Shown: in pieces, positions 1,729 to 30,297 of the stretch
Layout of the letters: each line of letters opens with the position of its first letter
How positions within the stretch are numbered: position 1 is the stretch's first letter
Source of the DNA: Candidatus Pacearchaeota archaeon
GTDB lineage: Archaea; Nanobdellota; Nanobdellia; Pacearchaeales; GW2011-AR1
Reading direction: 5' to 3'
Assembly (NCBI GenBank): GCA_023475035.1
Contig: JAMCXF010000033.1
Coordinates: 2,868-44,114 of the forward strand
Length of the DNA: 41,247 nucleotides
The notes under the pieces: model-generated
Databases searched by the model: none
What the model was told of the DNA's origin: nothing
Seen by the model: the letters and a program-made list of their open reading frames with translations, nothing else
Position numbers and translations under genes: made by a program

Positions 1729-3130
1729 CTAAAACCTCTTGAACTTCTTCCCGAACTTTTTAGCAAACTTCATCATCTGCTTTTGAGACATTCCCTGCGA
1801 CATATCCATATTTCCAGAACCAACTCCTGACTTAATCATATCGTTGAGGAGTCTGTATTGCTTGATTAAAGAACGAACATCACTCGTCGGAACTCCTGCA
1901 CCTTTTGCAATTCTCGCGATTCTTGAAGTTTGCTTTTCCAAAACTTCTGGATTTTCTTTTTCCTCTTGCGTCATTGACTTAACAATATGCTCCCACTTTG
2001 CAACTTTTGCTTCCTGACTTTCAAGCATTCCTTCTGGAATTTTTGCCTTCATATCTGACAATCCCGGAATCATTGATTTTATTTTTTCAAAACCTCCGAG
2101 ATTTGACATTGACTTGACTTGTTCTATAACATCATCAAGAGTTAATTTTCCTTCTTCAATATTTTTCTGAATTTTTTTCTGCTGGCTTTCTTCTGTAACT
2201 GATTTTATTTTTTCAATCAGAGTTTCCAAATCCCCCATTCCGAGAAGACGGGCGAGGAACGAGCCTGGATTAAATTCTTCAATGTCATTTATTTTTTCCC
2301 CTGTTCCGATAAAATAAACTGGTGCTTGCGTTTCTGCGCAAGCTGTCAATGCTCCCCCTGCTTTTGCAGTTGAATCCATTCTTGTAATTATAACCCCTGA
2401 AATATTCATAGCATCTTTAAACTGGCTTGCCTGCTGTTTTGCTGCCTGCCCAATATCTGCGGGAATAACAAGAATTCTCTCTGTAGGTTTTATTTCCTTG
2501 TCAAGAGACTTTATCTCGTCAATTAATTCCTTGTCTAATGTGTGTCTTCCTGCTGTATCAACAAGAATTAAATTGTAATCTTTCAACTGCAAAAGCAGGG
2601 GGAGCATTGACATTTTCATATTTTTTCCATAACTTGACAGGATTTTTTTCAGTCGCATCAATGAAATAATTCAACTTGTGTTTTTCTGCAAGCTGTTTCA
2701 GTTGCTCTGCGGCAGCAGGACGATGAACATCCAAACCTATAAGTGCAACCTTGAATCCTCGTTTTGCATAATAATTTCCTAACTTAGAAATTGTTGTTGT
2801 CTTTCCGCTTCCATAAAGTCCGAGAAGAAGAACAATATTTTGCTTCTTGTCTAATTTTAACTGCTTGTATTCTCCAAGAATAGCCAAAAGTTCATCGTGA
2901 AGGATTTTTATTATATGCTCCTTTTTTTCAATTCCTTTAACTCTCTCATCCATCGCAGCCTTTTTGATTTTGTCTGATAATTCTTTTACTAATGCTACAT
3001 TAACATCTGCTTCAATCAACGCTCTCTGCAAATCTCTTACGATAGAATCGACTAAATCTTTATCAAGAAAAATAGCATTCGCTATCTTGTCAGTTGCTTT
3101 TTTTATTACTTCTCCAAGTTTCTCTAACAT
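1729..3130 (-). CDS. srp54: Signal recognition particle protein SRP54, split into two overlapping ORFs (2558-3130 and 1729-2661) by an apparent +1 frameshift.
   Basis: The N/G domain start (GLYGSGKTTT, DVHRPAAAEQL) is in the upstream ORF. DTAGRH, ITRMDSTAKAGGAL, LLGMGD and the Met-rich M domain are in the downstream ORF. Confidence 0.85.
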
Positions 3131-3177: not shown

Positions 3178-4359
3178 TTACAACCCCAATCTCTCAATAA
3201 ACTTTTCCTTGTCAAACGGTTCTATCTTGTCATATTCCTGTCCTGTTCCAAGATAAAGAATTGGTTTCTTTGTAACATAACCTACGCTAAGTGCTGTTCC
3301 GCCTTTGTCGTCAATGTCTGCTTTTGTCAAAACAATTCCGTTAATTCCGATTGCCTCGTCAAAACTTCTGACTTGTTCAATCGCGTCATTTCCTGTGATG
3401 CTTTCCCCGACAAAAACTTTCTTGTCTGGCTTGCAAACTTTCACAATTTTTTCCATTTCCTTAAGAAGATTTTTTTGAGTATGCATTCTTCCTGCTGTAT
3501 CAATAAGCACGCAATTCAATAAATTCTTTTTTGCATATTTTATTGCATCAAAACCTACTGCCGCAGGGTCACTGCCATATTCGTGTGCAATTATTTTCAC
3601 TCCAATCTTTTCCCCGTGAGTCTTTAGCTGTTCAATTGACGCGGCACGGAAAGTATCTCCTGCAGCAATTACGCTGGAAATTCCTTTCTTCTTAAGATTC
3701 TCTGCAATTTTTGCAATTGTCGTTGTTTTCCCTGTTCCATTTATCCCGCAAAATAAAATAACATACGGCTCATTGGTACTCAGGAATTTATCCTTTATTT
3801 CAACAGCTAAATTCGGAGGTTCAATAAGAATCTCTCTTATTATATCCTTGAATGATTCGTTGATTTCACTTTCAATTTCTTTTTTCAGAATTTCTTTCCT
3901 GACAACCTTTTCTTTCAAGTCCTTCACAATTTTTTCGGCAACTTCAAGAGCCACATTATTCTCTAAAAGAAGCATTTCAAGCTCCTCGCCATAAACATCA
4001 AATTCTTTTTCAGTTATTTTCACTTTCGAAATTTTCTCGCCAAACTTTTCAAAAATGTTTTTCTTTTTCTCTTCCTCTGTCTCTTCTTCTTTTAGAATTA
4101 TTTTCTTTTCTTCCTTTTCCTGCTTTCTTTTTTCCTTTGCTTCCTTTTTTTCTTTTTTTCTCTCTTCCTTTTCTGTTTTTTTAGTTTCTTTTTCAAAAGA
4201 CACCTTATCGGTTTCTTTTGTAAGCTTCCCTTTATGATACTGCTCACGGCTGATTTCTTCCTGAACTTTCTCTTTTATTTCCTCTTCTGCTTTTTCTTCA
4301 GCCTTCTGGCTAAGTTTTTGCGTCCAGTTTTTCAGTTTTTCTTTTAATTTTCCAAACAT
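3178..4359 (-). CDS. ftsY: SRP receptor FtsY with a Lys/Glu-rich N-terminal domain. Start reassigned to ATG 4359.
   Basis: C-terminal NG domain motifs: GINGTGKTTT, AAGDTFRAA, DTAGRMH, LTKADIDDKGG. The 4359 start coincides with the conserved leader junction gacgcgATG that is also used by rpl44e. Confidence 0.85.
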   Translation of the reverse strand: MFGKLKEKLKNWTQKLSQKAEEKAEEEIKEKVQEEISREQYHKGKLTKETDKVSFEKETKKTEKEERKKEKKEAKEKRKQEKEEKKIILKEEETEEEKKKNIFEKFGEKISKVKITEKEFDVYGEELEMLLLENNVALEVAEKIVKDLKEKVVRKEILKKEIESEINESFKDIIREILIEPPNLAVEIKDKFLSTNEPYVILFCGINGTGKTTTIAKIAENLKKKGISSVIAAGDTFRAASIEQLKTHGEKIGVKIIAHEYGSDPAAVGFDAIKYAKKNLLNCVLIDTAGRMHTQKNLLKEMEKIVKVCKPDKKVFVGESITGNDAIEQVRSFDEAIGINGIVLTKADIDDKGGTALSVGYVTKKPILYLGTGQEYDKIEPFDKEKFIERLGL

Positions 4360-4451
4360 CGCGTCATAGTTTTCGACGAGAAAATTTTTCGCTTTGCAAA
4401 AAATTCGGCGAGAATTCACTCGCTTTGCTCGTCATTTATCTCATAGGGAAG
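4357..4451 (-). promoter_or_regulatory. Conserved leader/promoter element, copy 1, abutting the ftsY ATG.
   Basis: 25/25 nt (4357-4381) and 30/30 nt (4412-4441) are identical to 7696-7720 and 7746-7775. The centre differs between copies. The distal end contains agataaatg, which is TATA-like on the minus strand. Confidence 0.6.
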
Positions 4452-4504
4452 AGCATTCAATTAGTTATTAAGTTTTTGGATTATCTTTTGAAAATGAACA
4501 TAAA

Positions 4505-6638: not shown

Positions 6639-6657
6639 AAGCCTCCAGAGAGATTTG
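6639..6657 (-). repeat. Exact 19-nt duplicate of the tRNA-Thr 3' end (aagcctccagagagatttg).
   Basis: Identical to 6733-6751. It is followed by ggagttca (6657-6664), the reverse complement of the tgaactcc that follows in the true gene. Confidence 0.8.
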
Positions 6658-6733
6658 GAGTTCACTTCGTTCCCTCTCATTCGACAAGTCAAATGAAACT
6701 CCGTTCAAATATTTTTTTTGTTTTTTTATCATA

Positions 6734-6805
6734 AGCCTCCAGAGAGATTTGAACTCCCGACCCTTTGCTTACAAGGCAAATGCTCTGCCACTGAGCTATG
6801 GAGGC
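6734..6805 (-). tRNA. tRNA-Thr (UGU), 72 nt, no intron.
   Basis: Manual cloverleaf: GCCTCCA/TGGAGGC acceptor, anticodon loop CTTGTAA, T arm GGGAG-TTCAAAT-CTCTC. Confidence 0.9.
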
Positions 6806-7698: not shown

Positions 7699-7785
7699 CG
7701 CGTCATAGTTTTCGACGAGATAATGAACTGGAGTTCATTAGGCGGGAATTCACTCGCTTTGCTCGTCATTTATCTTAAGGGAAGG
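7696..7785 (-). promoter_or_regulatory. Conserved leader/promoter element, copy 2, abutting the rpl44e ATG.
   Basis: Same conserved arms as 4357-4451. The central insert is a perfect 8-bp hairpin, taatgaac-tgga-gttcatta (7721-7740). An in-frame stop 13 codons upstream of the ATG shows it is non-coding. Confidence 0.6.
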
Positions 7786-7848
7786 AGAGAATTTGGGTTT
7801 TTAAAGTTTAAGTTTAATCAGAAATGGCCCTACTACTGAATAAAAATA

Positions 7849-7916
7849 TGGCCCTGCGAACTCGAGCCCCACTCGTTGCAATTAAAACTTTTCTCGCACT
7901 CGTGAAAACTCTCGGG
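7849..7916 (-). repeat. Exact 11-nt duplicate of the tRNA-Val 3' end (tggccctgcga, 7849-7859) plus the conserved ~54-nt trailer module (7861-7916).
   Basis: The duplicate lies exactly 100 nt from the true 3' end. The module ctcgagccccactcgttgcaattaaaacttttctcgcactcgtgaaaactctc is about 93% identical to 28781-28834. Confidence 0.75.
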
Positions 7917-7948
7917 AATTACACCTACGGTTCAATTCAAAATTTAAT

Positions 7949-8020
7949 TGGCCCTGCGAGGAATTGAACCTCGGTCTTGTCCACGTCAAGGACACGTCTT
8001 AGCCGTTGGACTACAAGGCC
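7949..8020 (-). tRNA. tRNA-Val (GAC), 72 nt, no intron.
   Basis: Manual cloverleaf: GGCCTTG/CAGGGCC acceptor, anticodon loop TTGACGT, T arm CGAGG-TTCAATT-CCTCG. Confidence 0.9.
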
Positions 8021-17035: not shown

Positions 17036-17065
17036 TTCTAAAAACTATATTCAAATCAAAAATAA

Positions 17066-17149
17066 TGCGGAGTATAGGATTTGAACCTATGTAGGCACTA
17101 AGCCGACAGCTCCTAAGGCTGCCCCGTTTGACCACTCCGGCAACTCCGC
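17066..17149 (-). tRNA. tRNA-Leu (UAG), 84 nt, with a long variable arm.
   Basis: Manual cloverleaf: GCGGAGT/ACTCCGC acceptor, anticodon loop CTTAGGA, variable arm GGC-TTAGT-GCC, T arm ATAGG-TTCAAAT-CCTAT. Confidence 0.9.
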
Positions 17150-17191
17150 ATATGTATTTATCAAAAATCATTAATATAAAAAGTTTTAGAA

Positions 17192-20494: not shown

Positions 20495-20615
20495 GCCCTG
20501 GTAGCTCAGCCTGGATAGAGCATTAGCCTTCTAAGTGAGATGGGAAATCTCCCATTCTTCCTTTCGAGGAAAAGAAGAAAGCTAAGGGTCGCAGGTTCAA
20601 ATCCTGTCCGGGGCG
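20495..20615 (+). tRNA. tRNA-Arg (UCU) with a ~46-nt intron at the canonical 37/38 position (about 20534-20579).
   Basis: Exons give GCCCTGG/CCGGGGC acceptor, anticodon loop CTTCTAA, T arm GCAGG-TTCAAAT-CCTGT. The intron carries two hairpins: atggga-aatc-tcccat and ttcct-ttcg-aggaa. Confidence 0.85.
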
Positions 20616-23881: not shown

Positions 23882-26235
23882 CTCAAATTGGTCAATTCAG
23901 TTCTGTTTATCTTTAGTTCCATGTAATCCATCTGCATAATATTCGCTGCTGCATCGGTTGTGTTCTGTGAAACTAACACACCAAAGCCGGTTTCTCTACC
24001 GCCAGCAGTAGGAATATTTGACGTTACAGAAGATGTCCAAAGCTGGGCCCCGCTAGCATAATTGTACAGTGAAAAAGCAACTGATGTTGCTTCGCTGTTC
24101 ACAACCACTTCCCCTATATACCATATATTACTCGCAATTGTGTAAGTTGAACCTGTTGATGTCGGGCCCGCATTATTTTTGCACATTCCTTTTAATGTAT
24201 TGGCTGCTGTCGTATTAACATCAATCCAACATCCATCAGTTGGTTCGGCAGCAGTAATTGAATCCATAAAACCCATTCTGTATCTAACGTTGGTTCTTGC
24301 CGTAGCATGCTGAAAAATAAACCTTGCTGATTCATTTCCAGCAATTCTAAAAGCAGCAACATCTGTCATTACTCTAAATCCTCCATTTGCTGTTGTCGAA
24401 TCTCTTAGTGCAATAATTCCAGGATGGCTTGCATTTCCTGCAATTGCTACACCTGTTCCTGACGAAATTGCAGCTCCTAAAAATGGATCGTAAGAAAGTG
24501 TCGTGCTATAAGATAAAAATTCCTGAGATATTTTCCAAGGAGGGACACTACTTGAACCGCTTCCTGTTTCATCTGCTGTACAAGTAAATATTCCTGTTGA
24601 ATTATCATAGGCTGAAATTTTATCTGTTCCTGAACAAGTTATTGTTGACGCATTTGTTTTAGAGTCGCCGCCTGCTCCTGTCGCATCTGTACAAAAATCA
24701 GCGTCTGTTCCATCATCTTGAGTAATATTTTTACAGGATATTTTAGTTCTGTTCTGTTCTCCGATATGCAATGCTGAATTATTTACCAGTGTAACATTTG
24801 TACTAATCATTGAGAAAAACCATCTATTATCCCAAGTTGTATTCCAATTTGTAAATGTTAATTGTGAATAATTAAGAGAGATGTTAGTTGCCCAAGTTGA
24901 AATGTCGATAATGCCGAGTATTAATCGCGAAAAAAAACCAGTATTCGCGGTTAAATTCTTGCTTACAGTAAGATTATTGAAGCTGACATTTGCAGTTGTA
25001 TTTAACTGCTGATCAAAATAATTTACTCCTCCGCCACTGCTTGTGATTGTGCACAAATTGCTAACTGCACCTGTAATATTAGAACAGGACAAAGTTGTCA
25101 TATTTTGTCCTCTCGTTATTGACAAGTTTGCAATCATCGACGCTGTTGCATTATACAAATTTTGGATATTTTTTGTGTTGTTTATTATTGATGAATTTAA
25201 AATAAAAGAACTGTGAAAATCAGTAAAACTAAAATCTCCTCCGCCACTGACTAATTGTGAAATTGACAAGTTTGCAATCATCGACGCTGTTGCATTATAC
25301 AAATTTCCAAGATTTGCAGTGGTGTTAATTGTCAATCCTTGCTGTGCAGTTACATTGACTGCAGTTATTCTTCCATCTGTATATGTGTTTGCAAATGCAG
25401 TCCAGTTTCTTGAAATGTTTGCAATCCAGTTTGAAATATTTATATCACCTTCAATAAATATTGAACCTGTTACATTCAGAACATTTGACAAATTCGTCCA
25501 TGTTCCTGCAAAATTATTTGACTGATTTGTAAATGCCAAATTTGCATAATTCATTCCTCCCACTCCGCTTTGGCTTATCGATAAGTTTGCAATCATCGAC
25601 GCTGTTGCATTATACAATTCCTGAATATTTTTTGTTGTATTCTTTAAAAATAACTTGCTGCTATTCCAATTTCCAAAAAAAGTATCCGCTGTTATATTAT
25701 TTGTTGTATTAATTGCTCCGCTTCCATTTATTTTCCCATTAAAATCAATATCTTGAACGAATAAAGTTGTGATTCTTGTGACTAAATCCCCCAACCAAGA
25801 AAAAAATCCTGTGCCTACTGTTGTCATATTATAATTTATTATGTTTAGATTGGAGTCTGCTTCAATTCCGCTTATCGTTATATTTCTTGCTCTGAAAGCA
25901 TAAGGGACTCTCGCAATTTTTTCATTTGATTGTAATATTCCTGTTCTATAAACACAAAGCCAATATTGTTCTGAATAATTCAGATTTGTATTTTCTAAAT
26001 AATAAGAAATTATCCCTTGCGCATCTGTTGTTTGAGTGGAATAATTTGTATATATTGGATTATTGCAATCATCAGCAATTGAAATATTAAATTCAAATTT
26101 GAAATCCCCTGTAACAATATCTCCGTTTGTATCTACTGCCTGCACATTAACATGAATTGAATCATTTACGGGGACGGCATAAATAAAATTAACAAAAAGA
26201 ATGCATATTGCAATTAAAAAGATTTTTTTCATCAT
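23878..26235 (-). CDS. Secreted sequon-rich protein (785 aa) with tail-fibre-like repeats and a probable jelly-roll (ConA/LamG-like) C-terminal domain.
   Basis: Signal peptide MMKKIFLIAICILFVNFIYA. ARVPYAFRARNI motif. The motif LYNATASMIANLSI occurs three times. More than 40 N-x-S/T sequons. Confidence 0.65.
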   Translation of the reverse strand: MMKKIFLIAICILFVNFIYAVPVNDSIHVNVQAVDTNGDIVTGDFKFEFNISIADDCNNPIYTNYSTQTTDAQGIISYYLENTNLNYSEQYWLCVYRTGILQSNEKIARVPYAFRARNITISGIEADSNLNIINYNMTTVGTGFFSWLGDLVTRITTLFVQDIDFNGKINGSGAINTTNNITADTFFGNWNSSKLFLKNTTKNIQELYNATASMIANLSISQSGVGGMNYANLAFTNQSNNFAGTWTNLSNVLNVTGSIFIEGDINISNWIANISRNWTAFANTYTDGRITAVNVTAQQGLTINTTANLGNLYNATASMIANLSISQLVSGGGDFSFTDFHSSFILNSSIINNTKNIQNLYNATASMIANLSITRGQNMTTLSCSNITGAVSNLCTITSSGGGVNYFDQQLNTTANVSFNNLTVSKNLTANTGFFSRLILGIIDISTWATNISLNYSQLTFTNWNTTWDNRWFFSMISTNVTLVNNSALHIGEQNRTKISCKNITQDDGTDADFCTDATGAGGDSKTNASTITCSGTDKISAYDNSTGIFTCTADETGSGSSSVPPWKISQEFLSYSTTLSYDPFLGAAISSGTGVAIAGNASHPGIIALRDSTTANGGFRVMTDVAAFRIAGNESARFIFQHATARTNVRYRMGFMDSITAAEPTDGCWIDVNTTAANTLKGMCKNNAGPTSTGSTYTIASNIWYIGEVVVNSEATSVAFSLYNYASGAQLWTSSVTSNIPTAGGRETGFGVLVSQNTTDAAANIMQMDYMELKINRTELTNLR

Positions 26236-28410: not shown

Positions 28411-28637
28411 ATGCCTGAAAAAGACTGTATTTTTTGCAAAATGTCCGCGGAGGAAATTCCTGTAAAAAGATTTATGAGAATGAAAATTTTTTTTCAATTC
28501 CTGACATCAATCAAGAAATAAAAGGACATGCTTTAGTTATTTCGAAAAAACATTTGGCAACTATTCTTGAATTACCGAACAGCATTGTAAAACACTTTCA
28601 TATACATATTTTACCTAGAAAAAAGATGATGAGATAA
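28411..28637 (+). pseudogene. Degraded HIT-family (histidine triad) gene, with a frameshift and an internal deletion.
   Basis: MPEKDCIFCKMSAEEIPVKR is in one frame. IYENENFFSIPDINQEIKGHALVISKKH...HFHIHILPR is in another. About 40 residues normally lying between the substrate loop and HxHxH are missing. Confidence 0.6.
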
Positions 28638-28752
28638 ATATCCTTTAATGACTCTGGGCTAAAATTTAGGAAAAATTTTGCCTGCATCGCCATACTTCGT
28701 ATGGCTCTGTGTCCTCTCTTCGTTGCGGGCGAGCATTTTCTCATTCTTCGAA

Positions 28753-28888
28753 AATGGCTCTGGAGAGTGCTGACCTCTTACTCGAGCCCCCACTCGTTGC
28801 AATTAAAATTTATCTCGCACTCGTGAAAACTCTCTACCCAACTCCCCACTCGTAGCTATAAAAATTACTGGCACTCGTGAAAACTCTC
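28753..28888 (-). repeat. Exact 25-nt duplicate of the tRNA-Met 3' end (28753-28777) plus two tandem copies of the trailer module (28781-28834 and 28842-28888).
   Basis: aatggctctggagagtgctgacctc is identical to 28918-28942. The modules share cccactcgt...gcactcgtgaaaactctc with 7861-7916. Confidence 0.75.
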
Positions 28889-28919
28889 GCGACCTCTGCC
28901 TACGGCCTCGATCGCGGAA

Positions 28920-28991
28920 TGGCTCTGGAGAGTGCTGACCTCCCGACCTCGGCCTTATGAGAGCCGCGCTCTACCGCTGAGCTACAGAGCC
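28920..28991 (-). tRNA. tRNA with CAU anticodon (elongator Met or Ile2), 72 nt, with an atypical T loop.
   Basis: GGCTCTG/CAGAGCC acceptor and anticodon loop CTCATAA. The T arm GGGAG-GTCAGCA-CTCTC has G at positions 54 and 58 instead of T54/A58. G1:C72 argues against an initiator. Confidence 0.75.
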
Positions 28992-29038
28992 TGTTTATAA
29001 TGCAAAGAAAAAGATATTTTAAAAGTCTTCTTATAGAA

Positions 29039-29265: not shown

Positions 29266-30297
29266 TCACTCAATCCTGTCAATTTCAGAAAGATTTCTAA
29301 CGGCTTCAATCAAGTCACTTAATTTCTTTGGCGTCTCAGCCATAAAAAGAATGCTGTATTTCAGATTTTCTTCTAAAGCTTTTTTATGTGATTTTAAAAT
29401 TTCTTTTTCTGTAATCTTTTTTTGATTGAACACAAAAAGCAATTCTTCTTTCCTGTCTTTTTTTATTTTCAAAACTGCTTCATTGTTTCTGAAATCTTTT
29501 ATATCCAAAATTTCAATATTCTTCTTTTCCAAAAATTCTTTTATTTTATTAAAAAAGTTTTCATCTTTTTTGTTATTGTTCTGTTTTTTCTTTTTTGGTT
29601 TTGGTTTTTCTTTTTTTGAAACTTGTTCTGACTCTTCGTGAACAGAAACAGATTCATCTTGTTTTTTTGGAACATCAAAAATATTTTCTATCTTTTTTTC
29701 TTCTATGATTACAACTTCTTTTCTTTCTGAAATTTGCTCAACAGGTATTTCTGTTTCCTGTTTAATTTCAACAATCTCCATTTTTTCTTCAATCTTTGGT
29801 TTTTGTTCCTCAAAAGACACCTTATCGGTTTCTTTTGTAAGCTTCCCTTTAAAATACTGCTCACGGCTGTTCTCTTTTGGATTAAAATCTTCTTCTGGAA
29901 TGGTAAAATATCTCCAGTAAATATCTTCATCTTTTCTGAAAGGAATTGCAAAATCTTTTATTTCTCTTAGTGCAACTCTTATTGCGGGCTGAAGTTCAGA
30001 ATCTTTCAAAAATTTTTTTTCTTTCAAAAAAAGAAATGCCTCTTTCTCTTTGCTTTTGAGATACTTTGAAAAATTTTCAAGCTGGGGCTCTTGTCCTGGA
30101 ATAAAATAAAGCGGAGAACTGCCGACTTTCAGATTGCTTATGCCTATCATTTTTTCGCTATATAAATCAGATAGAAATGCCGATGCAAAAAGAATGCTCA
30201 ATCCTGTTTCTTTTGATATATGAACAGGTAAACTAGGGCCTCTTAACCTGATAAAATGCATTATCTTCTCTTTTACTTGGAGCGCGTCCTGAACCAT
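29266..30297 (-). CDS. Hypothetical protein with a winged-helix-like N-terminal domain, a Lys/Glu-rich linker and a conserved C-terminal domain.
   Basis: ORF track. ATG 30297 is preferred over TTG 30312 because of the TATA at 30320-30329. The N-terminal IRLRGPSLPVHISKETGLSILFASAFLSDL...SPLYFIPGQ looks like a wHTH. No firm family assignment. Confidence 0.5.
   Translation of the reverse strand: MVQDALQVKEKIMHFIRLRGPSLPVHISKETGLSILFASAFLSDLYSEKMIGISNLKVGSSPLYFIPGQEPQLENFSKYLKSKEKEAFLFLKEKKFLKDSELQPAIRVALREIKDFAIPFRKDEDIYWRYFTIPEEDFNPKENSREQYFKGKLTKETDKVSFEEQKPKIEEKMEIVEIKQETEIPVEQISERKEVVIIEEKKIENIFDVPKKQDESVSVHEESEQVSKKEKPKPKKKKQNNNKKDENFFNKIKEFLEKKNIEILDIKDFRNNEAVLKIKKDRKEELLFVFNQKKITEKEILKSHKKALEENLKYSILFMAETPKKLSDLIEAVRNLSEIDRIE

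Follow-up and report, generated by a model that had tools for sequence, protein, structure and literature searches.

A tRNA-Met(CAU) gene in a 41,247-nucleotide (nt) stretch of archaeal DNA, referred to here as the window, is followed by a nested array of non-coding insertions and copies of its own 3' end. The interpretation we favour, with a probability of roughly 0.6, is that the locus comprises the tRNA gene and the scars of serial insertions of a mobile mini-hairpin, module M, in which the tail of the gene was duplicated by copying and no integrase took part. The copies of M are non-coding, mobile hairpins of miniature size; they form a family specific to their lineage and have a conserved, strand-specific stem-loop. 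The array itself (28647-28919) was built by repeated events and by later recombination between tail copies.

The window is AT-rich (~34% GC) and encodes the ribosomal proteins S17e, L44e and S3Ae, a tRNA-splicing endonuclease and five tRNAs (Val, Met, Thr, Leu(TAG) and Arg(TCT)), among them an intron-bearing tRNA. Retrieved sequences are labelled L001-L036, and each covers only a small part of its genome. All the related ones derive from metagenome-assembled genomes (MAGs) classified as Nanoarchaeota/Nanoarchaeia or 'Pacearchaeota', and the source organism is a DPANN archaeon. Five of the labelled sequences (L011, L013, L014, L019 and L020) are chance or unrelated metagenome matches and were set aside.

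The nested array behind tRNA-Met(CAU)

The tRNA-Met gene, which scores 56.3 bits against Rfam, lies on the minus strand at 28920-28991, and the elements of the array, all on the same strand, extend from it towards lower coordinates. Adjoining the gene is a spacer (28889-28919) with a hairpin, gcgatcgaggCCGTAGGcagaggtcgc, and the motif CCGTAGG. Its ends, GCGAT..GGTCGCGAG, match by eye subfamily 2 of M, and it is probably an older M copy that has been internally deleted. The M copy closest to the tRNA, M1 (28837-28888), shows slight decay at its 3' end (62.5 bits, E 3e-16 with the covariance model R1 described below), while M2 (28781-28834), documented in alignment A2, is an intact consensus copy (80.2 bits, E 1e-21). 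The trinucleotide TAA joins M2 to an exact 25-nt copy of the tRNA tail, GAGGTCAGCACTCTCCAGAGCCATT (28753-28777). Beyond this lie cassette B (28710-28752; ..GAATGAGAAAATGCTCGCCCGCAACGAAGAGAGGACA), older and with a weak likeness to M that is apparent by eye and was not detected by the model; a third tail copy, CAGAGCCATA (28700-28709); cassette U (28658-28699; ..GCAAAATTTTTCCTAAATTTTAGC hairpin), the oldest; and a fourth, degenerate tail copy with one mismatch, CCAGAGTCATT (28647-28657). B has homologues behind the tRNA-Met genes of L026, L028 and L030, and U has homologues in L026, L028 and L033 and a tandem triplet in L003. Nested in the B cassette of L026 (11990-12050) is a small palindromic insert (ctggttctctgagg...cagaaccag) that the B cassette of the window lacks.

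The 25-nt sequence comprises the last 23 nt of tRNA-Met (positions ~51-73) and 2 nt of trailer (28918-28942), and the repeat is located 142 nt downstream; by our own arithmetic, about 1e-6 pairs of exact 25-mers would be expected by chance in 41 kb. Similarly, three occurrences of the 18-mer GAGAGTTTTCACGAGTGC were found in the window, where 0.01 would be expected. An earlier note on this DNA had described the exact repeat, two tandem versions of a module also found at the tRNA-Val locus and a 7-mer common to the two trailers. All three observations hold, as M1, M2 and the Val copy (7861-7913) are matched by the covariance model and CCGTAGG is present in both trailers. The check with ARAGORN that the note proposed returned tRNA-Met(CAT) at 28920-28991 on the minus strand. 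Both of its shorter tail copies exist, although the first starts at 28700 and not, as the note had it, at 28699, and the outer copies are indeed the shorter and more decayed ones.

The T arm of the tRNA (gggag/ctctc) carries the loop GTCAGCA, whose oddity the note had also pointed out; in the window's four remaining tRNAs the loop reads TTCAAAT or TTCAATT. As L026 conserves the loop together with a GU-to-GC change in the stem, the odd tRNA-Met is probably functional. Relatives that contain an intact tRNA-Met other than L026 (L003, L028, L029, L030 and L033) have TTAAATT-like T loops, and the D loops of L003, L028, L030 and L033 lack GG, so the elbow is atypical throughout this CAU tRNA lineage. 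In tRNA-Met genes the downstream direct copy begins near position 51 rather than at ~63, the usual start. The stretch GGTCGGGAG of this tRNA is identical to a variant of the M 3' end, which may explain why M joined near position 50 here.

The 5' ends of tRNA-Met and tRNA-Leu have also been duplicated upstream of the genes. For tRNA-Met the duplicate consists of ggctctgtagctca and a 60-90 nt insert with the antisense sequence cgctacagag, and is found in several relatives (L031 12110-12900; L003 6224-6310; L028 12026-12110; L033 12175-12272; L032 12403-12450). In L031 an odd tRNA-Met is split by ~770 nt of sequence that begins with a canonical tRNA-Met gene.

The array abuts a HIT-family pseudogene on the plus strand (28413-28640), recognized by a partial Pfam HIT match and by tblastn and DNA alignment with L026. 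Relative to the intact 116-amino-acid (aa) orthologue of L026 it contains two 1-nt deletions and a 111-nt internal deletion, which bears out the note's assignment. The alignment indicates that the gene was pseudogenised recently; its decay adjoins the array, which is not shown to be the cause.

Module M and its stereotyped cassette

M is a discrete, non-coding hairpin repeat of 53-57 nt. The covariance model R1 was built from 18 copies, which span 53-55 aligned columns with a mean column identity of 88%. The 10-bp stem (GAGUUUUCAC / GUGGGGGCUC) is 98% paired, displays compensatory double changes at two positions (A-U to C-G and U·G to A-U), retains four invariant U·G pairs and is flanked at each end by tandem GA/AG dinucleotides. 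These dinucleotides are invariant on both strands at both ends. In the register that a kink-turn would need, with a 3-nt AAC bulge, the short stem is 75% paired and its changes are one-sided. With RNA energy parameters the sense strand folds at -14.6 kcal/mol on average and the antisense strand at -6.1 kcal/mol, a difference in the same direction in all 18 copies. DNA parameters leave only a small asymmetry (-5.2 versus -4.0 kcal/mol), and in the one copy whose structure was displayed the hairpin is not the best fold. M also contains paired ACGAGTG motifs. In the ~300 kb of DNA examined the model finds 33 matches, roughly one per 5-10 kb, and three subfamilies were sorted by eye among the retrieved sequences. 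Pattern matches are confined to Nanoarchaeota/Nanoarchaeia MAGs and metagenome contigs, within a Pacearchaeota-like clade. At gathering score, Rfam reports only tRNAs in the window, and at the Met locus (28600-29000) nothing is returned for M at E<=10.

Some solo copies of M are flanked by TTCCC..GGGTGGGCGA and TTGGGCGGGAAT (L004 2336-2405 and 5950-6045; L007 3418-3544; L008 2280-2370; L001 3454-3502), and a similar G-rich hairpin sequence fills the loops of variant M copies, which suggests a second mini-element that nests with M. The FtsY and L44e genes of the window are preceded, at a distance of 60-100 nt, by the copies of a 51-nt repeat (4403-4453 and 7737-7787; 86% identical) that contains ACGAGCAAAGCGAGTGAATTCCCGCC, which recalls M and, when reversed, the GGGCGGGAAT flank.

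M is located downstream of at least 13 tRNA loci, and at all of them it is oriented in the sense of the tRNA. The cassette has a constant order. The tRNA is followed by a T-rich trailer of ~10 nt, an antisense copy of 8-10 nt of the T loop, a turn of 2-3 nt, a sense copy of positions ~49-62, M, 1-4 nt and, finally, a direct copy of the tRNA from position ~63 onward. This layout was observed at Val, Met, Thr, Leu, Arg, Cys and Tyr tRNAs and at several intron-bearing tRNAs in the window, its relatives and metagenomes. At the Val, Leu and Arg loci and in L010, a set that includes three T-loop variants, the antisense segment complements the resident T loop exactly (10/10). The sense copy carries a lesion at positions 54-55, typically GGTG, in every copy inspected. 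The sequence before M is thus not merely a decayed tRNA copy, a description that proved too simple for a hairpin made of an exact antisense segment and a sense copy with a stereotyped lesion. The inserted units measure ~40-170 nt and share the same compact anatomy at many tRNAs; the distance from the tRNA end to M is 31-35 nt at five of them. The cassette starts directly after the T-run at the Val, Leu and Arg loci and in L012, a rule that L010 does not fit. The direct repeat is 11-42 nt long, extends 0-33 nt beyond the tRNA end and lacks CCA. Because the tail is re-copied downstream, the gene stays intact.

Three of the five tRNAs of the window (Val, Met and Thr) have a cassette and a fourth (Leu) a remnant. 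At the Val locus (7849-8020, minus strand), tRNA-Val (7949-8020) is followed by its trailer and the T-loop antisense segment GAATTGAACC (7929-7938), the damaged sense copy, M (7861-7913; 73.9 bits) and an 11-nt tail copy (7849-7859); a further GGGCCATT lies beyond (7823-7830). At the Thr locus (6639-6805, minus strand), tRNA-Thr (6734-6805) precedes the antisense segment ATTTGAAC (6703-6710), a decayed M-like insert and a 19-nt tail copy (6639-6657). Only GATTTGAA (17050-17057) remains of the cassette behind tRNA-Leu(TAG) (17050-17150, minus strand). The fifth gene, tRNA-Arg(TCT) (20495-20615, plus strand), contains an intron of ~45 nt, was found with Rfam and missed by ARAGORN, and has an empty cassette site as its 3' flank.

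Use of the cassette extends beyond tRNAs. At the signal recognition particle (SRP) RNA gene of L002 and L006 (Rfam Archaea_SRP, E 6e-18), the arrangement of an inverted followed by a direct copy keeps the polarity of the gene.

Filled and empty sites and the remodelling of arrays

Clean pairs of empty and filled sites in relatives (at tRNA-Met, at tRNA-Arg and in an open reading frame (ORF)) demonstrate that M is mobile. L028 has a filled tRNA-Arg(TCT) site where L026, L015 and the window, with orthologous flanks, have an empty one; the indel is made up of the entire unit and a repeat of 21-22 nt, 11 nt of which are native trailer. This pair is the cleaner evidence for duplication of the flank, because part of the longest direct repeat, the 42 nt of L010, recurs in L012, which weakened the L010 repeat as proof. 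At tRNA-Met, M is present in the window, whereas L026 and L027, whose endonuclease is 98% identical, have the same odd tRNA with no M and with an intact HIT gene. L017 has a complete cassette behind a tRNA-Leu identical to that of the window, where a remnant is left, and L015 has none. The note's view of the Met locus as an insertion hotspot is therefore upheld, as cassette content differs even from a relative so similar in its endonuclease and intact in its HIT gene. The strict conservation among relatives that it had named as the mark of a functional trailer was not observed, the cassettes being polymorphic.

M also inserts alone. In an ORF of L028, a canonical M lies precisely within an older M that is uninterrupted in L026, with no more than 3 nt (GAG) duplicated. 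Copies are in frame in protein ORFs in L003 (5423-5469, for example ESLHEHQFQNASVGSS), L026 (3191-3245) and L028 (3221-3305), and two of the three reading frames of M are open, as they are in Rickettsia palindromic elements; the L003 ORF (360 aa) is the orthologue of a 348-aa protein of the window. In L034 a full-length but decayed tRNA-Val has M at 62|63, with no intact copy alongside.

The arrays have been remodelled. Behind tRNA-Met the window reads M, B, U; the units follow one another as M, U, B in L028 and as U, B in L026, and in L003 the U unit is present three times in tandem. The B-like insert of L030 comes with a repeat that matches the different acceptor stem of that relative's own tRNA. 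The Cys cassettes of L026 and L028 are orthologous, and each tail copy matches its own tRNA even though the acceptor stems differ at two pairs. Recombination between tail copies has thus produced deletion, tandem amplification and reordering, and probably conversion as well. Whole tRNA genes have been inverted in place between flanking genes syntenic with the window (tRNA-Met in L029, 11732-11804; tRNA-Thr in L034, 6579-6650, and L036, 2769-2840).

Three further repeats were seen in genes of the window. The SRP54 gene (ORFs 1729-2661 and 2558-3130, minus strand) contains a perfect 31-nt inverted copy (2344-2374 versus 2582-2612) of a downstream G-domain segment, ~207 nt upstream in the gene, at which the frame breaks into two ORFs; this looks like the same kind of inverted templated insertion as in the cassettes, or an artefact of chimeric reads. 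A 75-nt repeat (4185-4259 and 29802-29876; 91% identical) links the 5' part of FtsY to the gene for the 348-aa protein, beside S17e, and may be a common in-frame segment. Three 72-nt repeats (25116-25646; 83-85% identical) lie in a 785-aa ORF with an SO2946-like C-terminal domain.

Mechanism, alternatives and significance

The cassette has three fixed landmarks on the tRNA: the sense copy starts near 49-52, M lies at 62|63, and the cassette itself begins just past the T-run. These landmarks, in combination with an exact antisense segment beside a stereotypically damaged sense segment, argue for copying with template switches over cut-and-exchange. We propose a copying process with a change of template: it would copy the tRNA's 3' part a second time, and a short inverted segment, formed by snapping back, would remain at the junction, with M either carried in or inserted at the foot of the hairpin. 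Replication or repair synthesis could stall at the tRNA terminator, snap back on the T loop and re-copy the 3' part; alternatively, a tRNA precursor ending at the T-run might be reverse transcribed, or the antisense arm may have a guide-like role. Taken singly, each of these versions of the enzymology is tentative, and even the best of them is a minority bet. The sense bias, the fold seen only with RNA parameters and the precise, repeat-less insertion into ORFs favour an RNA stage. Once in place, the cassettes look like junk in the tRNA trailer that is removed by normal 3' processing.

Several observations weigh against this interpretation. At the SRP RNA gene the layout keeps the polarity of the gene, yet M runs antisense to it, which does not fit a purely RNA-level route, and the reversed M, together with the absence of a reverse transcriptase from the loci examined, argues against an RNA stage. 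No enzyme was identified in the few percent of any genome that was examined. At the Met locus of L028 the T arm of the tail copy is of the GTCAGCA type and that of the resident tRNA of the TTAAATT type, and the two share only CAGAGCCA, as attachment-site (att) type exchange or allele replacement would give. L036 has an intact tRNA-Val and no M, and its trailer still contains GAATTAAAC..CCGT, which is either a deletion remnant or a sign that the inverted segment is partly native. Part of the 42-nt L010 repeat may have come with the cassette. The covariation in M is based on three copies, possibly related. Finally, no duplicate (inverted copy, direct copy and tail) without M was seen.

One bolder possibility, for which we see a modest chance, is that the M cassettes are a new protein-less, self-targeting, guide-armed copying element. 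The arm before M, being complementary to the T loop, would pair with the tRNA precursor or gene; a polymerase starting from the 3' end of the precursor would stall at the duplex (~62/63) and jump onto M; and the chimeric product (arm, M, tRNA tail and trailer) would be installed directly behind the gene, keeping the essential target intact. Such an element would be an archaeal analogue of the retroposition of short interspersed nuclear elements (SINEs). Known copying systems linked to tRNAs include tRNA-derived SINEs, mobilized by target-primed reverse transcription, and the Neurospora mitochondrial retroplasmid, whose hybrid cDNA integrates at a tRNA gene by homology. The cassette resembles these retro-copies in its variable-length duplication, its T/U-run end, truncation of the 5' end at a fixed structural position, a possible snap-back and the sense orientation. 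It differs in that no reverse transcriptase was seen, the copies contain neither poly-A nor CCA, and one case, at the SRP RNA gene, is antisense.

Somewhat less probable is an integron-like process in which a mini-cassette, the insert plus a tail copy, excises as a circle and re-enters at a tRNA tail by Campbell-type recombination, whether homologous or site-specific. By reasoning, a circle of tail, trailer, hairpin and M that integrates in the tail would yield the observed layout exactly. The permuted order of units between relatives, the homogenised tail copies, those at Cys and Met tracking their own tRNA, and the tandem U units of L003 all fit such exchange, and the fused tRNA-Val of L034 resembles recombination between the tRNA and the sense copy. 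Integron arrays are likewise ordered series of short hairpin-bearing units beside one fixed site whose order varies between relatives, but here the cassettes are gene-less, an attC consensus is lacking and no IntI-like enzyme was found in the loci examined. Furthermore, the model leaves unexplained how the arms and tail of a new tRNA are first acquired; the homology segments are just 10-25 nt long; and M inserts alone elsewhere. Mini-cassette exchange may well operate as a secondary process on top of a primary insertion mechanism.

The earlier note had read the locus as the scars of serial integration at a tRNA att site. The part of this proposal that stands is that repeated insertions behind the tRNA left nested tail copies; an integrase-bearing att element is not supported. 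In its classical form, in which viruses or plasmids encoding an integrase integrated serially and were then mostly deleted, M being an arm-type integrase-binding region, we regard this explanation as improbable. Integration scars such as those of archaeal SSV/pNOB8-type elements and Prochlorococcus tycheposons share with the array the stacked 3'-end repeats, a start in the T arm or its vicinity, the decayed outer copies and the hotspot character. Serial integration has as its textbook signature a nested set of direct repeats of a tRNA 3' end, and repeats whose start lies in the T arm or close to it fit the crossover sublocations known in tRNA genes. The insert is indeed flanked by direct repeats (11-42 nt) that reproduce the tRNA's 3' part, the paired ACGAGTG motifs could be protein-binding sites, and the displaced tail copy of L028, with its different T arm and only CAGAGCCA(T) in common with the resident tRNA, is also in keeping with integration. 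What separates the two is the insert. Here it consists of constant, non-coding cassettes of 40-170 nt that are built alike at more than 10 tRNAs, which random deletion of large elements would not yield, and no gene-carrying insert of kilobase scale or recognizable remnant of one was found. In addition, an inverted T-loop copy sits at the junction, the repeat may include native trailer (11 nt at the Arg pair), and M occurs beside the SRP RNA gene and, without a long repeat, in ORFs and inside another M copy. A single integrase core site is excluded because the repeat sequences differ completely between tRNAs.

The note had proposed a search for an integrase or unknown recombinase near other copies of the module; no recombinase domain was found in the window ORFs scanned or in the syntenic stretches of relatives. 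Specifically, integrase, transposase and reverse transcriptase domains were absent from these ORFs and from the Pfam lists of ~4-20 kb of synteny in ten relatives. Tyrosine and serine recombinase Pfam families were absent from the same ORFs and from the lists for L024-L036, which cover a small part of each genome, and no HUH (Y1) transposase was seen in the loci examined. A viral origin was considered and rejected, since a scan of IMG/VR with the module pattern returned three chance matches only, in unrelated, GC-richer DNA; M was not found on IMG/VR contigs.

About equally improbable is that M is a functional trailer RNA, a kink-turn (K-turn)-like small RNA that is transcribed together with the tRNA and set free by RNase Z; the same low likelihood applies to the view that the tail copies and T-loop antisense segments serve processing or regulation. 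In Nanoarchaeum equitans, small RNAs (sRNAs) of the C/D box type flank split genes and form tRNA-sRNA dicistrons, and their mobility is suspected, by an unknown mechanism (PMC3491384); a MITE-like sRNA element (MITE, miniature inverted-repeat transposable element) is described in Pyrobaculum calidifontis (PMC6009581). This precedent of dicistrons and mobile sRNAs in Nanoarchaeota, the RNA-specific covarying hairpin with its GA/AG motifs, the invariable tRNA sense of M and its constant 31-35 nt distance all speak for a function. Judged from its sequence, M would resemble the mobile K-turn sRNAs in being a small structured RNA with GA·AG motifs directly downstream of tRNA genes in Nanoarchaeota. 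Alignment A2, however, contains neither C (RUGAUGA) and D (CUGA) boxes with ~12-nt guides, nor C' and D' boxes, nor H/ACA features, and there is no Rfam match. Moreover, presence varies among close relatives at orthologous tRNAs, some copies are decaying (M1, B and Thr), and others lie in ORFs or antisense to the SRP RNA gene. The A-run/TTTAAT loop of M does resemble local tRNA promoters, which makes an outward promoter conceivable, but the downstream genes are inconsistently placed or convergent, so that this is unlikely even as a side function. Transcription and structure are equally compatible with a selfish element, and in this respect the functional trailer overlaps with the copying of a mobile hairpin that we favour.

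Much less likely still is a bulge-helix-bulge (BHB) intron at a non-canonical position, or M as the promoter or leader of a gene for a 3' tRNA fragment, as in the split tRNAs of N. equitans. The organism is a nanoarchaeon with a splicing endonuclease encoded 1.4 kb away and with intron-bearing tRNAs, the repeat would leave the mature tRNA unchanged after removal of the intervening segment, and the antisense T-loop segment could pair with an exon. However, the upstream tRNAs are complete and score normally, and the copied piece of 10-25 nt is no tRNA half. As the nucleotides after both splice sites are identical by construction, the 4 nt of the BHB must be palindromic, and such a 4-mer is present in the Val, Arg and Leu tails and absent from Met, Cys and L010. 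M is also reversed at the SRP RNA gene and translated in ORFs. Lastly, an artefact of assembly or amplification, which the note had named as a refuting condition, is scarcely credible: chimeric reads can give short exact repeats and inverted segments such as the 31-nt SRP54 inverted repeat, but a Logan assembly made independently from run SRR10267473 matches the Met and Val loci at 100% identity, and the same architecture, at the Met locus included, recurs in many MAGs and metagenomes that come from other samples.

Each of these known systems has features in common with the cassette, and only among the selfish mini-repeats does M qualify as a member: it is short, non-coding, multi-copy and polymorphic in presence at orthologous sites, as MITE- or REP-like (repetitive extragenic palindromic) repeats are. 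The Rickettsia palindromic elements (RPEs), REP/REPIN sequences, MITEs and the palindrome-associated transposable elements (PATEs) of the IS200/IS605 group are lineage-specific, non-coding, multi-copy hairpins of tens of bases. RPEs are tolerated in frame in protein genes, and IS200/IS605-type insertion is precise and occurs without target duplication. M resembles the former in its in-frame tolerance and the latter in its precise solo insertion, and, like mini-repeats, its copies nest into one another. Conversely, there is no fixed-length target duplication (0-3 nt at the ORF site, 11-42 nt at tRNAs) and no known transposase. The ends of M are not clean terminal inverted repeats, pairing only through G·U (T versus C in DNA terms), so that the hallmarks of MITEs are lacking. 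Further differences are a one-strand G·U stem that appears with RNA parameters only and insertions at RNA genes that re-copy the gene tail. No description of such an element was found in the literature.

DPANN and Nanoarchaeota genomes are tiny and thought to be poor in mobile DNA, yet M, a 54-nt hairpin, is frequent in the DNA examined here. It has been active on the timescale that separates close relatives, reshaping the flanks of tRNA and SRP RNA genes, and the resulting partial tRNA copies can mislead the annotation of tRNAs and of 'integration sites' in MAGs. The stereotyped junction is hard to derive from known recombinase pathways and points to template switching, possibly RNA-templated. 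If this is true, it would give a concrete account of how small structured archaeal RNAs move, as they have long been suspected to do, and a possible source of the tRNA gene fragmentation, inversions and odd tRNA features that are typical of the group.

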